Origin: Bifidobacterium breve
Lineage (GTDB): Bacteria; Actinomycetota; Actinomycetes; Nanopelagicales; Nanopelagicaceae
Length of the DNA: 64,000 nt
NCBI GenBank assembly: GCA_945885625.1
Contig: CAMCYS010000005.1
Coordinates: forward strand, 3,410 to 67,409
Reading direction: 5' to 3'
Shown: piece after piece, positions 53,902-57,215 of the stretch
How positions within the stretch are numbered: the first letter of the stretch is position 1
How the letters are laid out: the number at the start of each line of letters is the position of its first letter
Translations under genes and position numbers: made by a program
The notes under the pieces: model-generated
Databases searched by the model: none
The model's input: the letters and a program-made list of their open reading frames with translations, nothing else
What the model was told of the DNA's origin: nothing

Positions 53902-56310
53902 ATGAGAAATTCAACGCTTGCCCGCCCATCCGCCCCTACCCGCCAAAGCGCATCGCGCCGCGCACTCGCACTCGTTGCCATCGCTGTAATGGCCGCCGTT
54001 GGGCTGCCTGCAATTGCCACCGCAGCTAACCCAGCCGTCATCACGTTAACCGTTCACTACCAACGCCCTGCTGCTGACTATGAGAATTGGAACTTATGGT
54101 TATGGCGAAACTTAGGCACCGGTACTGATTCTGACGTTAACAAAGACGGCGTTAAGTTCACCGGCGAAGATGATTTCGGAAAAGTTGTTACCGTTGAAAT
54201 CAACAACATGGATAAATATGAAAACGTCGGAATCATTGTTCGTAAAGGTGAATGGGCAGCAAAAGATGTAACTGCCGATCGTTTCATCACGAAGTTTGGC
54301 GCAGATGGCAAAACTGAAATTTGGTTACGCCAAGCTGACCCAGTTATTTACTACGAGAAGCCAACTGGCGAAGTAGTTATTCCGGTTGCAAATAAGCTAG
54401 CAAAACTTTATGACTCACCAGAATTCGCCGCAAAGTACACCTACACCGGCAACGATCTTGGTAACACATACACAAAGACTGAAACCAAGATGCGCGTATG
54501 GGCACCTACTGCCACTGCGGTAAAAGTTGTTACCTACGCAAAAGCCGATAGCGCAAGTGCAGCTGGTGTTGAAACTGCGATGACCCAAGATGTCAACGGA
54601 ACTTGGGTTGCCAGCATTAGTGGTGATCAAGACGGTTTGATTTACAACTACCGAGTCACAGTCGATGGCGTAACCAACGAAGCAGTTGACCCTTATGTTC
54701 GCGCCACCACAATTAATGGTGCGCGCGGAGTTGTGGTAGATCTTGATAAAACCGACCCAGCCAACTGGAAGAAAACTAAGCCAGCATTTAGCGGCAAGAC
54801 TGTCGATGCCGTTATCTATGAACTACATGTGCGCGATTTTTCAATGGATGCCTCCAGCGGAATTCCAGCTGCGCACAAAGGCAAGTTCTTAGCCTTTACT
54901 AACCTAAATACCTCATATAACGGCCAAAAGACCGGCCTTTCAGCGATTAAAGACCTTGGCGTTACTCACGTTGAGTTGCTACCGTTCTTTGATTTCGCAT
55001 CTGTCGATGAAGCTAGCCCAGGCTTTAACTGGGGCTATGACCCACAGAACTACAACGTTCCGGAAGGTTCATATAGCACCGACCCAACCAAGCCAACAGT
55101 GCGCATAACAGAGCTAAAGCAAGCGATTCAAGCGATGCACGATCAGAAGCTGCGCGTGAACATGGACGTTGTTTACAACCACGTTTATAACGCAGGTGCA
55201 TTTAGTCAGGAGTCAATCGTGCCAGGCTACTGGTTCCGCACTGATGAATCTGGCAACTTAACTAATGGCACCGGCGTCGGAAATGACACCGCTTCAGAGC
55301 GCCCAATGGTTCGCAAATTTATTGTTGACTCAGTTAAGTACTGGGCCACTGAATATAACCTCGATGGTTTCCGTTTCGACTTAATGGGTATTCATGATAT
55401 TCAAACCGTTAACGAAGTTACTGCCGCCCTTAAGGCAATTGATCCAACTATCATCGTAATTGCTGAAGGTTGGAACATGGGAACTCTGCCAGATGATCAG
55501 AAAGCAAATCAGCTAAACATTTCAAAGTTAAATAACGTAGCAATGTTTAATGATCAAATTCGCGATGGCTTAAAGGGTTCAGTATTTAACGCAACTGATA
55601 CCGGATGGGCAACTGGCAAGTTAAGCGCAGCTGCTGATATCTATGCCGGCATCGTTGGCAATACTGATTACAGCGCATCATTTTTAACCAAGTGGACAAC
55701 GACAGCCCCTGGGCAATCGGTTAACTATGTTGAGTCCCATGACAACTTGTCATTGGCCGACAAGCTAACTGCCAGCGTTAAGGGAATCAGCCCAGCAGGC
55801 GTTGCGCAGTTGAGCCAGTTCGCAACCTCAGTAGCTTTCTTAGCGCAAGGCGTGCCATTTATGCAGGCCGGCCAAGAGTTCCTACGCTCTAAAAATGGCA
55901 ACGAGAACAGCTACAACGCCGATGATGCAACGAACTCGTTGAAGTGGTCAACCAAAGCTAAATTTGCGGCCACCACCAAGTATTACCAAGGGTTAATCGC
56001 CCTTCGCGCCGCTCACCCAGCTTTCCGCATGAGCACAACGGCTGAAGTTAAGGCGAACCTCAAGTTCCTTAAGACCACTAACGATGTAATCGCATACACG
56101 CTAAACGGCAAAGCTGTTAAAGATAAGGCGAACACAATCGTGGTTATCCATAATCCAAATCCAGGTGCCGCTGTTGTGACACTGCCAAATAAAAAGAAGT
56201 GGTCGGTCGTAGTTAAGGGCGGCGTCGCTGGCACCAAGACACTCGAATCATTCTCGAAAAACAAGGTAAGTGTTGCTGGTCAAACCACCATGGTGCTGAC
56301 TCAGAAATAA
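53902..56310 (+). CDS. pulA: Secreted type I pullulanase (CBM41 + CBM48 + GH13)
   Basis: N-terminal VHYQRP...WNLWLW module; YELHVRDFS, NWGYDPQNY, DVVYNH, GFRFDLMG, AEGW, YVESHD; possible Tat signal SRRAL. Confidence 0.9.
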   Translation: MRNSTLARPSAPTRQSASRRALALVAIAVMAAVGLPAIATAANPAVITLTVHYQRPAADYENWNLWLWRNLGTGTDSDVNKDGVKFTGEDDFGKVVTVEINNMDKYENVGIIVRKGEWAAKDVTADRFITKFGADGKTEIWLRQADPVIYYEKPTGEVVIPVANKLAKLYDSPEFAAKYTYTGNDLGNTYTKTETKMRVWAPTATAVKVVTYAKADSASAAGVETAMTQDVNGTWVASISGDQDGLIYNYRVTVDGVTNEAVDPYVRATTINGARGVVVDLDKTDPANWKKTKPAFSGKTVDAVIYELHVRDFSMDASSGIPAAHKGKFLAFTNLNTSYNGQKTGLSAIKDLGVTHVELLPFFDFASVDEASPGFNWGYDPQNYNVPEGSYSTDPTKPTVRITELKQAIQAMHDQKLRVNMDVVYNHVYNAGAFSQESIVPGYWFRTDESGNLTNGTGVGNDTASERPMVRKFIVDSVKYWATEYNLDGFRFDLMGIHDIQTVNEVTAALKAIDPTIIVIAEGWNMGTLPDDQKANQLNISKLNNVAMFNDQIRDGLKGSVFNATDTGWATGKLSAAADIYAGIVGNTDYSASFLTKWTTTAPGQSVNYVESHDNLSLADKLTASVKGISPAGVAQLSQFATSVAFLAQGVPFMQAGQEFLRSKNGNENSYNADDATNSLKWSTKAKFAATTKYYQGLIALRAAHPAFRMSTTAEVKANLKFLKTTNDVIAYTLNGKAVKDKANTIVVIHNPNPGAAVVTLPNKKKWSVVVKGGVAGTKTLESFSKNKVSVAGQTTMVLTQK

Positions 56311-56320
56311 GTAATTACGC

Positions 56321-56467
56321 AAAGTAGTTTTTCAAAACGCACATCAAATAGTGCAAACCATTGCGCAGTAATACTGATTCGTGATAGAAAGAACCCCTCA
56401 AGAAGTAATTCCTGAGGGGTTCTTTATGTGGGGCTCCAGTTTTACCCAGAGTCGCCGTTACTGCGGC
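56321..56467 (+). repeat. Copy B of the dispersed element
   Basis: Aligns with the reverse complement of 51770-51915. Confidence 0.9.
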
Positions 56468-56483
56468 GACTCTGTCTTTTCTT
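56388..56483 (+). ncRNA. Candidate antisense sRNA (antitoxin-like) overlapping the 3' end of the small ORF
   Basis: Begins with the AGAACCCCTCA hairpin and ends in an 11-bp hairpin CAGAGTCGCCG/CGGCGACTCTG plus TCTTTTCTT. Transcription is not shown. Confidence 0.4.
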
Positions 56484-56552
56484 CGCTAAGTAATCGAAGA
56501 TTGAACGGATTAACGTCACCACAATCTGGGTCCAGTTTGCACTTGGATCCAT
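56442..56552 (-). CDS. 36-aa small peptide (amphipathic helix + basic tail), type I toxin-like
   Basis: GGAGGTG SD 6 nt before ATG; MDPSANWTQIVVTLIRSIFDYLAKKRQSRRSNGDSG*; followed by a terminator; partial paralog at 51727-51795. Confidence 0.65.
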   Translation of the reverse strand: MDPSANWTQIVVTLIRSIFDYLAKKRQSRRSNGDSG

Positions 56553-56828
56553 TGGCATCACCTCCTCTCTATATCGGTTGGGGAACTACCGATATAGAGT
56601 TCGCAACCGCGTTAACGCACTTGCGACAAAGAAGGATCACAACACGTTGGGCAACTTACGCGCGCGACTACAGCGCCCCACCAAAGCCCGATTTACCTGT
56701 GCACTAACCAGTGCCCGCCCCAAACCCGCACGCTCTTCGCAAAGTCATCACAGAGATTCCTAAAGGTCTGCGCCCACTATTTGCCTGTAAGCAAAGGCAC
56801 CAAGCCCGAGCACATAGAAAGGCTGATC

Positions 56829-57215
56829 ATGAAAAACACTCGCACCGCAGTAGCCGCCCTACTAATTGCCGGCTTCGCACTAACTTCAACGACTGCCTCA
56901 TTCGCAGTCGAGACCACTAAGGCCGAACGAGTCGCAGCCCGCGCCGCATTCAAGGCCCAGATGGATGCCTTCAAAGCCGCAGCAGCTGCCCGCCACACAG
57001 CAGCCGATGCTGCACACGCCACCATTGATGCCGCTCGCGCAACCGCTAAGGCTGCCAAAGCTGCTGCCACCACAGCTGATCAGAAAGCAGCCGCCAAGGC
57101 CGCCTTCGAAGCAGCCCGCACCGCAGCAAAGGCAACTGTGCCTGCTAAGCCAGCAAAGCCTGCTAAGCCAGCCATCTTGGTCAAGGCAAAGCCACCTGTA
57201 ACTCCAGGTTCATAA
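56829..57215 (+). CDS. Small secreted Ala/Lys-rich helical protein
   Basis: AGAAAGG RBS, signal peptide ending ASFA, AAKA repeats, PAKPAKPAKP tail; terminator downstream. Confidence 0.75.
   Translation: MKNTRTAVAALLIAGFALTSTTASFAVETTKAERVAARAAFKAQMDAFKAAAAARHTAADAAHATIDAARATAKAAKAAATTADQKAAAKAAFEAARTAAKATVPAKPAKPAKPAILVKAKPPVTPGS

Follow-up and report, generated by a model that had tools for sequence, protein, structure and literature searches.

A candidate type I toxin-antitoxin-like cassette family with a putative convergent 3′ antisense unit in Nanopelagicaceae-type freshwater Actinomycetota

The DNA analyzed here is a stretch of 64,000 nt (hereafter the window, to which all plain coordinates refer) from contig CAMCYS010000005.1 of GenBank assembly GCA_945885625.1, which is labeled Bifidobacterium breve and carries a Nanopelagicaceae lineage. 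Between two of its genes lies a conserved cassette of ∼385 nt with a minus-strand ORF for a small peptide, a structured 5′-UTR, a terminator shared by both strands, and signals of a convergent unit on the plus strand. With a probability of roughly 0.5, that is, at about even odds, this cassette represents a new type I toxin-antitoxin (TA)-like family in Actinomycetota, belonging to the 3′-overlap class, with both the toxin and the antisense RNA being putative. The resemblance to known type I systems is one of layout only. The evidence consists of a small gene under purifying selection, a leader predicted to sequester the Shine-Dalgarno sequence (SD), a 3′ end at which protein-coding and RNA-level constraints coincide, and a deleted copy that keeps only the antisense side. 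The coordinates of all elements are collected in Table 1.

Results

The peptide gene and its family

The window peptide is MDPSANWTQIVVTLIRSIFDYLAKKRQSRRSNGDSG (36 residues); across the family, the length is 36–41 residues. All elements of the module were found again in more than 40 related modules. In the 34 modules of types A and B (see below), the coding frame is open without exception, the other two sense frames being closed in 33–34 of them, and the translation start GG[AG]GGTGA[TA]GCC[AC]ATG is kept in 34/34. SD, ATG, and frame are thus retained in homologous loci, as the first-pass annotation of this DNA had expected of a genuine module. The pooled pN/pS ratio is 0.28 and the median pairwise dN/dS ratio 0.2 (34 modules). 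Because pS reaches 0.43 in codons 1–26, it is the protein that is constrained there and not the RNA alone. This substitution pattern identifies the ORF as a genuine gene on which purifying selection acts.

For homology searches, the short query was padded with in-frame upstream residues, and the family alignment was led by a 41-aa member. The padded query retrieved seven proteins of 36–38 aa from metagenome assemblies (89–94% identity), and pattern scans found six loci in species-representative genomes and twenty-two in metagenomes. Two of the six genome loci are titled as metagenome-assembled genomes (MAGs) of Candidatus Planktophila (Nanopelagicaceae, Nanopelagicales, Actinomycetota), two bear no title more specific than Actinomycetota or Actinobacteria, another lies on the Nanopelagicaceae chromosome MKE-14 (OZ254153.1, locus L009), and the sixth (L006, CAMCXZ010000028.1) is titled as a Bifidobacterium breve MAG. 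At L006, a Nanopelagicaceae-type cassette lies beside a pullulanase-like flank, and the label Bifidobacterium breve is probably wrong. A profile search together with a profile word-search yielded at least 73 protein clusters at 90% identity, every one of them unnamed or annotated as hypothetical protein, mostly from freshwater metagenomes and Nanopelagicaceae MAGs.

The common motif of the family is (N/D)WT-x-(I/V)-x-x-T-(L/F)-I-(K/R)-S-x-F-…-SRR-x-NG(D/G). Two subtypes were recognized (…YLSRKGQSRR… and …YFSEKRQSRR…); between them lie one insertion and one deletion, spaced by five codons, so that the frameshift is compensated and the C-terminal frame is recovered. In the AlphaFold2 model, the peptide forms one helix spanning residues 3–33 (mean predicted local distance difference test score, 82), which is amphipathic (hydrophobic moment 0.53–0.56) and is followed by the basic tail KKRQSRR; the net charge of the tail is +4. 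Apart from the intact members, the alleles P0009, P0015, P0073, P0074, P0076, and P0077 switch frame just before or inside the hairpin hp3 in the last codons (…KVAAITATL…). These frameshifted alleles make up ∼8% of the clusters and could be inactivated copies. Indels of 1 nt at the DNA level explain their proteins. Programmed frameshifting, for which the A-run 5′ of hp3 was considered, was rejected: a canonical slippery heptamer is absent there, and the spacer is not long enough.

A leader predicted to sequester the SD

The SD GGAGG lies in AGAGAGGAGGTGAT; it is unusually strong and has long complementarity to the 3′ end of the 16S rRNA. Four sequence types of the 5′-UTR were distinguished, A (that of the window), B1, B2, and the distant type C, in which the SD region reads GGAGGTGA. 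Upon comparison of 42 unique UTRs of the four types, the minimum free energy (MFE) fold of types A, B1, and B2 was an identical three-way junction. In its helix P1, positions 56643–56640 and 56637–56629 of the window pair with 56566–56561, 56559–56557, and 56554–56551, which covers the SD and part of the AUG in both the MFE and the centroid structure; P1 is also part of the consensus structure of 30 UTR sequences. The strand opposite the SD is the 5′-terminal pyrimidine stretch, which reads AUCCUUCUU in type A; type B has AUCCCU or ACC(C/U)CU instead. The predicted probability of the SD being unpaired is 0.01–0.03 in the window RNA and, on average, 0.03–0.09 for types A and B. The other two helices, P2 and P3, carry compensatory changes. 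For types A, B1, and B2, the prediction is therefore a structured 5′-UTR with the SD sequestered. The type C stretch UCACC…CCACUCU, upstream of the SD, pairs with the GGUGA flank and with the bases preceding the SD; most folds retain P3.

The loop of P3 (56579–56587) contains the motif UUCCCC, which is kept in types A and C with unrelated stem sequences. The type C equivalents (L032–L042) have an upstream GGGG(A) with which UUCCCC could pair instead of P3 forming, which suggests a possible conformational switch. A role of the UUCCCC loop as an anti-SD sequence covarying with GGAGG or GGGGG was discarded, as no correlation across the types was found.

Upstream of the UTR, the −10 candidate TAAGTT is kept in types A and B, with TAATCT or TAACCT as its type C counterpart. 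A conserved AACG comes next, and it is plausible from this conservation that the two elements mark a promoter with transcription starting at ∼56648. Transcription may also begin further upstream, where another 50 nt are conserved and two RNA contigs extend into them. The segment 56659–56706 may belong to a longer 5′-UTR, or it may be a promoter-upstream or regulator site.

Overlapping constraints at the 3′ end

The terminator hairpin is paired in 99.6% of 544 cells, with compensatory changes at seven pairs; slid controls were ∼50% paired, and none of 500 shuffles reached its covariation score. The second conserved 3′ structure, hp3, lies within the coding sequence. Seven of its ten pairs are invariant among 32 sequences, even at synonymous positions (pS of 0.16 within hp3 vs 0.43 in codons 1–26), and two pairs carry compensatory changes. 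At one of these, U-A has given way to C-G in L034b and L037a, a change that is synonymous on one side (AGT to AGC) and replaces Asp with Gly on the other (GAC to GGC); this amino acid exchange is accounted for by the stem being kept.

On the plus strand, hp3 is followed by TCTTTTCTTC and would serve there as an intrinsic-terminator stem; a consensus scan of 56200–56900 returned hp3 on the plus strand as the sole terminator-like site. Codon choice next to hp3 is biased. Arginine in the six codons 5′ of hp3 is encoded by AGA or AGG in 40 of 41 cases (unique family members), a bias seen in at least five codon arrangements. AGR codons contribute only 11% of the Arg codons in the window's long ORFs, and inside hp3 itself Arg is encoded by CGC. 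On the opposite strand, the AGR codons yield a pyrimidine-rich tract right after hp3, which is what an intrinsic terminator of a plus-strand RNA needs. The RNAs of both strands, as predicted, fold far more stably than shuffled controls: the 264-nt minus-strand RNA has −111 kcal mol−1 (z = −8.1; 200 dinucleotide shuffles, 0/200 as stable), and the 151-nt plus-strand RNA has a z-score of −7.6 (again 0/200 shuffles as stable). Together, the sequence signals support the notion that the 3′ end bears conserved signals of a putative convergent antisense unit ending in the last codons.

With so much structure, the RNA itself might be the functional product, that is, a dual-function or RNA-level element in which the UUCCCC loop of P3, hp3, and the terminator form a trans-acting small RNA and the peptide is secondary. 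The nucleotide conservation of hp3 in excess of coding needs, the retention of the P3 loop motif on changed stems, and the very strong folding z-scores of both strands agree with this. However, the amino acids of codons 1–26 are under purifying selection at a pS of 0.43, distant members keep the protein motif where the UTR sequence has been replaced, and no Rfam family matched in the scan described below. An RNA-level element is thus regarded as improbable.

Candidate antisense promoters and an orphan 3′ unit

Two sites 3′ of the peptide gene may serve as plus-strand promoters, and both are proposed as candidates on account of their conservation. The first, P_as2, contains the box TGATAGAAA (56382–56390, plus strand), which is invariant in 34/34 unique modules; a TTG lies exactly 18 nt upstream of its TAGAAA in 27 of 34, type C included, with the spacers being unrelated. 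The predicted start at ∼56397, ∼7 nt downstream of the box, falls into the 5′ arm of the terminator hairpin. Because the RNA would begin inside this arm, the terminator hairpin could not form in it, and the RNA would run ∼88 nt to hp3. This is almost the antisense unit that the first-pass annotation had proposed. The second candidate, P_as1, consists of the invariant box AAAGTAGTTT and the conserved AACGCACA, with a start at ∼56336. It coincides with a sharp conservation boundary and is built like the candidate toxin promoter (TA..TT, 4–5 nt, AACG); its RNA would extend ∼95 nt to the bidirectional terminator or ∼149 nt to hp3.

An independent view of this unit is offered by contig L003 (positions 60–290). 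In a context of the window type, the cassette has lost everything from its 5′ boundary to about codon 21, and it retains the AAGAAAAGACA tract, hp3, the terminator, and both boxes, with the stems intact. The deletion junction lies at the T-tract after hp3. The same junction, joining window position 56487 to 56718, is present in contig X1 from an RNA run. The orphan piece would correspond precisely to the predicted antisense transcription unit.

Boundaries, contexts, and copies of the cassette

Conservation begins abruptly at the CACAGG box (∼56706) and stops equally abruptly at AAAACTACTTT on the mRNA strand, that is, AAAGTAGTTTT on the plus strand (56321–56331); outside these limits, the sequence is unrelated between loci. 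The extent of 56388–56626 given by the first-pass annotation was therefore too small, the conserved unit reaching from ∼56321 to ∼56706. At least eight genomic contexts were found, with neighbors including pullulanase, rhomboid, TspO, SOUL, and cytochrome b5 genes, glycosyltransferases, and an HTH gene. Some copies neighbor a PhdYeFM/YoeB pair with Fic nearby, or lie as two copies on either side of a CPBP/Rce1-like protease gene. Tandem or paired copies occur in L001, L023, L034, L035, and L037; no further copy was found in the 64-kb window, which holds a single one. So far, the cassette appears specific to Nanopelagicaceae-type freshwater Actinomycetota.

The type C cassettes (L032:878-1512; L034:607-981; L037:1-3) lie in accessory-looking neighborhoods with PhdYeFM/YoeB type II TA and Fic-domain genes, and the CPBP (Rce1-like) protease gene is the one flanked by two cassettes in L034, L035, and L037.

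Sharp boundaries, many contexts, and tandem copies are also what a mobile or repeat element similar to a miniature inverted-repeat transposable element (MITE) would produce. Such an element would carry the ORF by chance, and its conservation would reflect recent spread; the weak similarity of the cassette ends, ACACAGGTA versus TACTTTGTGT in reverse, would add to this. Against recent spread stands the divergence of the copies, which differ by up to 30–50% in protein and have wholly different UTRs with structure and frame kept, so that they must be old and under selection. Moreover, neither terminal inverted repeats nor target-site duplications were clearly visible, a systematic search for them not having been made. 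We consider a MITE-like origin even less probable than an RNA-level element.

The same contexts bear on a trivial explanation, in which ORF and hairpins are incidental parts of the 3′-UTR or terminator region of the pullulanase gene. The module does lie 11 nt to ∼400 nt past the stop codon of that gene (56310), and its first hairpin can terminate it. However, the cassette stands beside unrelated genes elsewhere, and its frame is intact in 34/34 copies, which refutes this explanation for practical purposes.

A second peptide of 38 aa, MSELALWLKFILEALKALLKHFEKRKSRPQDGRDNHIS, is encoded at L005:2445-2558, directly 3′ of a module of the first family (cassette 2300–2690), and its family is also present at L026:2465-2578 and L029:3-71, with a remnant at L004:2654-2702 (2–3 protein clusters in total). 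Its cassette comprises an SD and a strong terminator, has a purine tract and a hairpin within the last codons, and shares the end box TGTGCGTTTTGCAAAACTACTTTG with the first family; the peptide is a Leu/Lys-rich amphipathic helix and is absent from the window. It looks like a distant homologue.

Layout of the locus

The window locus, as summarized in Table 1, holds each of the individual elements that the first-pass annotation had listed: the minus-strand ORF with its GGAGGTG SD, the 12-bp hairpin 1 nt from the SD, the second hairpin upstream of it, the terminator 3′ of the stop codon, and, on the plus strand, the 11-bp hairpin with its U-rich tract. A 108-aa, GTG-started ORF on the plus strand (56381–56707), which spans the cassette, was judged spurious. 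It is not conserved in related modules, the opposite-strand frames being open in only 4–23 of 34 and the spacer containing indels.

Table 1. Features of the cassette and its surroundings in the window.
Feature	Position	Strand	Remark
Gap between genes	520 nt		between the two flanking plus-strand genes; from sequence
Pullulanase-type glycosidase gene	53902–56310	+	upstream neighbor
Ala-rich secreted protein gene, PAKPAKPA repeats	56830–57215	+	downstream neighbor
Whole conserved cassette, ∼385 nt	∼56321 to ∼56706	−	alignment of 33 modules from different contexts
Conserved upstream segment starting with CACAGG box	56659–56706	−	kept across contexts, including type C
Candidate toxin-mRNA −10, TAAGTT (fits TANNNT)	56658–56653	−	family conservation
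5′-UTR, ∼95 nt, three-way junction	56553–56648	−	predicted fold
P2, second hairpin, 13-nt arms, 85% complementary	56626–56601	−	
P3, perfect 12-bp hairpin, 9-nt loop	56599–56567	−	ends 1 nt before SD
SD GGAGG	56565–56561 (GGAGGTG 56565–56559)	−	8 nt 5′ of ATG
Peptide ORF, 36 codons plus stop	56552–56442	−	ATG 56552–56550, stop 56444–56442
Pyrimidine/T tract TCTTTTCTTCGCT after hp3	56475–56487	+	minus strand there encodes AKKRQ
hp3, GC-rich 11–12-bp hairpin in last 10 codons (QSRRSNGDS)	56447–56474	both	
Terminator hairpin, 17 bp, bidirectional	56425–56388	both	3′ of ORF stop
Candidate promoter P_as2	56361–56390	+	TTGCGC 56361–56366, 18-nt spacer ending TGA, TAGAAA 56385–56390
Candidate promoter P_as1, AAAGTAGTTT (TAGTTT 56325–56330)	56321–56339	+	family conservation

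Metatranscriptome coverage

Words of the module were found in many lake and river metatranscriptomes, and contigs in at least 10 runs. All RNA data are unstranded assembler contigs, in which carry-over of DNA is possible. For the copy of the L021 type, contigs of six runs cover 1920–2178 of that locus (one from 1842), which corresponds to the region from the predicted start through the terminator, the upstream flank being uncovered. Most RNA contigs begin 12–35 nt downstream of the L021 equivalent of the start, and two extend further upstream; the segment 56659–56706 is reached in runs X29 and X3. On the mRNA side, the contigs end at the terminator. Type A copies were covered in four further runs, at depths of up to ∼40.

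A seventh run (X9) contained a contig of higher depth that covers only 2117–2465 of L021, that is, the antisense-side boxes and the terminator to the exclusion of the ORF; this contig is continuous with the convergent neighbor gene. In run X27, a contig over 56391–56423 ends ∼10 nt past the 3′ arm of the terminator (plus strand) and continues into the A-rich tail GCAAAAAGAAAAAAAAAAAA, which may be artefactual or may represent a plus-strand RNA with a tailed 3′ end. Adapter remnants were informative in two fragments only, both relevant to run X28: one fragment over 56519–56653 and one from the plus-strand neighbor gene (56810) agree in adapter orientation. As for the surroundings, the downstream gene (56830–57215) has the region's highest contig depths (24–90) in several metatranscriptomes.

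Discussion

Proposed mechanism

If the cassette is a type I module, its parts would act together as follows. The primary peptide mRNA would be translationally inert until it is refolded or processed, and it would end at the covarying bidirectional terminator. A convergent small RNA of ∼90–150 nt would be transcribed from the plus strand, starting at ∼56336 and/or ∼56397 and ending at the shared terminator or at hp3 and its U-tract (∼56484). Because the two units overlap convergently, this RNA would be perfectly complementary to the 3′-UTR and to up to the last 14 codons of the peptide. The duplex would lead to decay of the mRNA, and possibly to its refolding, as in TxpA/RatA or BsrG/SR4, and would keep the peptide off. 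The peptide itself, when expressed, would target the membrane as a cationic amphipathic helix and arrest growth. Indirect hints of such toxicity come only from the frameshifted alleles and from the orphan unit, in which the 5′ part of the ORF is missing.

Several findings weigh against this assignment, beside the nature of the RNA contigs. The best 18-residue window of the helix has a mean Kyte-Doolittle value of 0.82, which is too low for a membrane span, and charged residues (Arg/Lys16, Asp/Glu20) are situated in mid-helix. Of the short hydrophobic or amphipathic helix with charged tail that the first-pass annotation had described, the amphipathic helix and the basic tail were borne out and the transmembrane hydrophobicity was not. 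Profile searches with the peptide (E up to 10) matched no family in Pfam, NCBIfam, or PADLOC, in keeping with the first-pass annotation, which had not recognized the peptide family. Within 56200–56900, a consensus scan called no sigma-70-type promoter and an Rfam scan (E up to 10) found no family above threshold; sub-threshold matches to His_leader and mir-1271 are terminator-shaped and were dismissed as spurious. Because of the former result, all promoter assignments rely on family conservation. The final T of the bacterial −10 hexamer is near-universal; TAGAAA of P_as2 lacks it and was not called by the scan. As to the leader, the SD core of type C is predicted to be only about half occluded, with the 5′ end of this RNA being uncertain, and the changes in P1 are one-sided (G-U to G-C), without full compensatory pairs. 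Finally, the X28 fragment hints at a plus-strand RNA across the toxin 5′-UTR, which the model does not predict, provided that this library was stranded.

Some of these points also speak for the main rival, which we think rather unlikely: a small regulatory or membrane-associated protein under translational control in cis, without any antitoxin. The 5′-UTR would then be an RNA switch, a thermometer, or a processing-dependent gate, hp3 and the terminator would be mRNA-stability elements or insulators against convergent read-through, and the peptide would be non-toxic, for example, a stress-induced modulator of a membrane or ribosomal partner. An amphipathic, basic peptide that is not a transmembrane helix would suit such a function, occlusion of the SD by itself is enough for regulation, the antisense promoter candidates are non-canonical, and the RNA contigs cover mostly the mRNA side. 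In several contexts, the neighbor gene is convergent on the module, so that the tandem terminators could indeed be insulators. However, cis control leaves unexplained why the TGATAGAAA and AAAGTAGTTT/AACGCACA boxes 3′ of the mRNA terminator are invariant, why an orphan copy keeps exactly the 3′ unit, and why AGR codons encode a pyrimidine tract on the opposite strand right after hp3. Nor does it account for tandem multiplication in streamlined genomes of 1.2–1.5 Mb (PMC12817590). The type I reading proposed by the first-pass annotation is supported in part: a real gene, a leader predicted to sequester the SD, conserved signals of a convergent unit, and multiple copies speak for it, and a transmembrane helix was not found.

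Significance

Several consequences would follow if the type I TA assignment holds. To our knowledge, type I TA systems have been described almost only in Bacillota and Proteobacteria. Their distribution has been characterized as narrow and phylum-specific (PMC5367252), and T1TAdb lists 24 families (PMC8594479); a term search of these two papers found no mention of Actinobacteria. In the literature searched, there was neither an Actinomycetota type I family nor a mention of the cassette in Nanopelagicales genomics, which is not proof of absence. If validated, the Nanopelagicaceae family would extend the type I TA class to Actinomycetota. A more ambitious version, which we put forward tentatively and with the odds somewhat against it, is that of a first type I TA superfamily in Actinomycetota, in which two or more peptide families would share one cassette design, with the antitoxin terminator in the last ten codons of the toxin and with orphan units neutralizing paralogous toxins via hp3.

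Genomes of the Nanopelagicaceae type are smaller than 1.5 Mb and dominant in lake bacterioplankton (PMC12817590). Accessory cassettes in multiple copies are unexpected in such streamlined genomes, and a selective role would therefore need explaining; it may lie in phage defence, dormancy, or island stabilization. The arrangement is also unusual in that the coding sequence, an mRNA hairpin, and a terminator of the opposite strand share the same 40 nt. If the interpretation is true, the toxin protein and the antitoxin RNA hairpin co-evolve, with rare AGR codons being kept for the sake of the U-tract, and orphan antitoxin units would be retained to neutralize paralogous toxins through the nearly invariant hp3. 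As cultured carriers exist, such as the one with the MKE-14 chromosome, the hypothesis is directly testable.

Comparison with known systems

Type I TA toxins usually have fewer than 60 aa and, in most families (SymE and RalR excepted), a hydrophobic membrane-spanning helix. The cassette shares with this class a small ORF under selection, predicted occlusion of the SD, and tandem or duplicated copies in patchy contexts; the hydrophobic membrane-spanning helix is a typical feature that it lacks. Its frameshifted alleles and the second peptide family in a cassette of like design also fit the genomic behavior of type I loci. No sequence relationship to TxpA/RatA, BsrG/SR4, or SprA was found, and for Fst, Hok, Ldr, TisB, Ibs, and ShoB there was no match in the Pfam, NCBIfam, and Rfam searches. 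The likeness to TxpA/RatA-, BsrG/SR4-, and SprA-type systems on which the first-pass annotation relied is thus upheld for the layout and not for the sequence.

With hok/Sok, AapA1/IsoA1, TisB/IstR-1, and DinQ/AgrB, the cassette has in common that a 5′-terminal sequence pairs with the SD and renders the primary transcript inert (predicted in the present case). Mutually exclusive or metastable mRNA structures have been reported for DinQ (PMC5066626) and AapA1 (PMC6733600). In those systems, however, the antisense RNA targets the 5′-UTR or ribosome-binding site, and defined 5′ or 3′ processing activates the mRNA, whereas the candidate unit described here lies 3′.

Fst/RNAII (par of pAD1) and SprA1/SprA1as likewise consist of convergent RNAs sharing a bidirectional terminator (putatively so here), and their toxin mRNA holds the SD in a 5′ stem-loop, as is predicted for the cassette. 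Their functional pairing, in contrast, takes place between 5′ regions outside the overlap. When the antisense 5′ part was paired with the toxin 5′-UTR (RNAduplex), z-scores ranged from −2.5 to +1.5, mostly ∼0 relative to shuffles, and no conserved site was found. Trans pairing between 5′ regions of the Fst/RNAII type was consequently rejected, there being no signal above shuffled controls. By profile search, the peptide also has no homology to the Fst or PepA1 families.

The Bacillus subtilis systems TxpA/RatA, BsrG/SR4, BsrE/SR5, and YonT/SR6 differ from the cassette in lacking any peptide or RNA sequence similarity to it and in their host phylum, Bacillota rather than Actinomycetota. They differ, too, in that the present peptide is amphipathic, not a transmembrane helix, and that the putative antisense terminator of the cassette lies within codons, evolving jointly with the protein. 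What they share with the cassette is the architecture: a short mRNA for a peptide of under 60 residues, the N-terminal part of which is helical and the C-terminal tail charged, and a structured 5′ region of the toxin mRNA, as predicted here. For Gram-positive families, T1TAdb describes an antisense RNA located 3′, with overlap of the ORF (PMC8594479). In the B. subtilis systems, the antitoxin gene is located 3′ and convergent, overlapping the 3′-UTR and the end of the ORF (PMC8594479; for SR6, PMC5848175), which is the position of the candidate unit in the cassette, and the same layout is found in the Gram-positive 3′-overlap families BsrH and SprG/SprF (PMC8594479).

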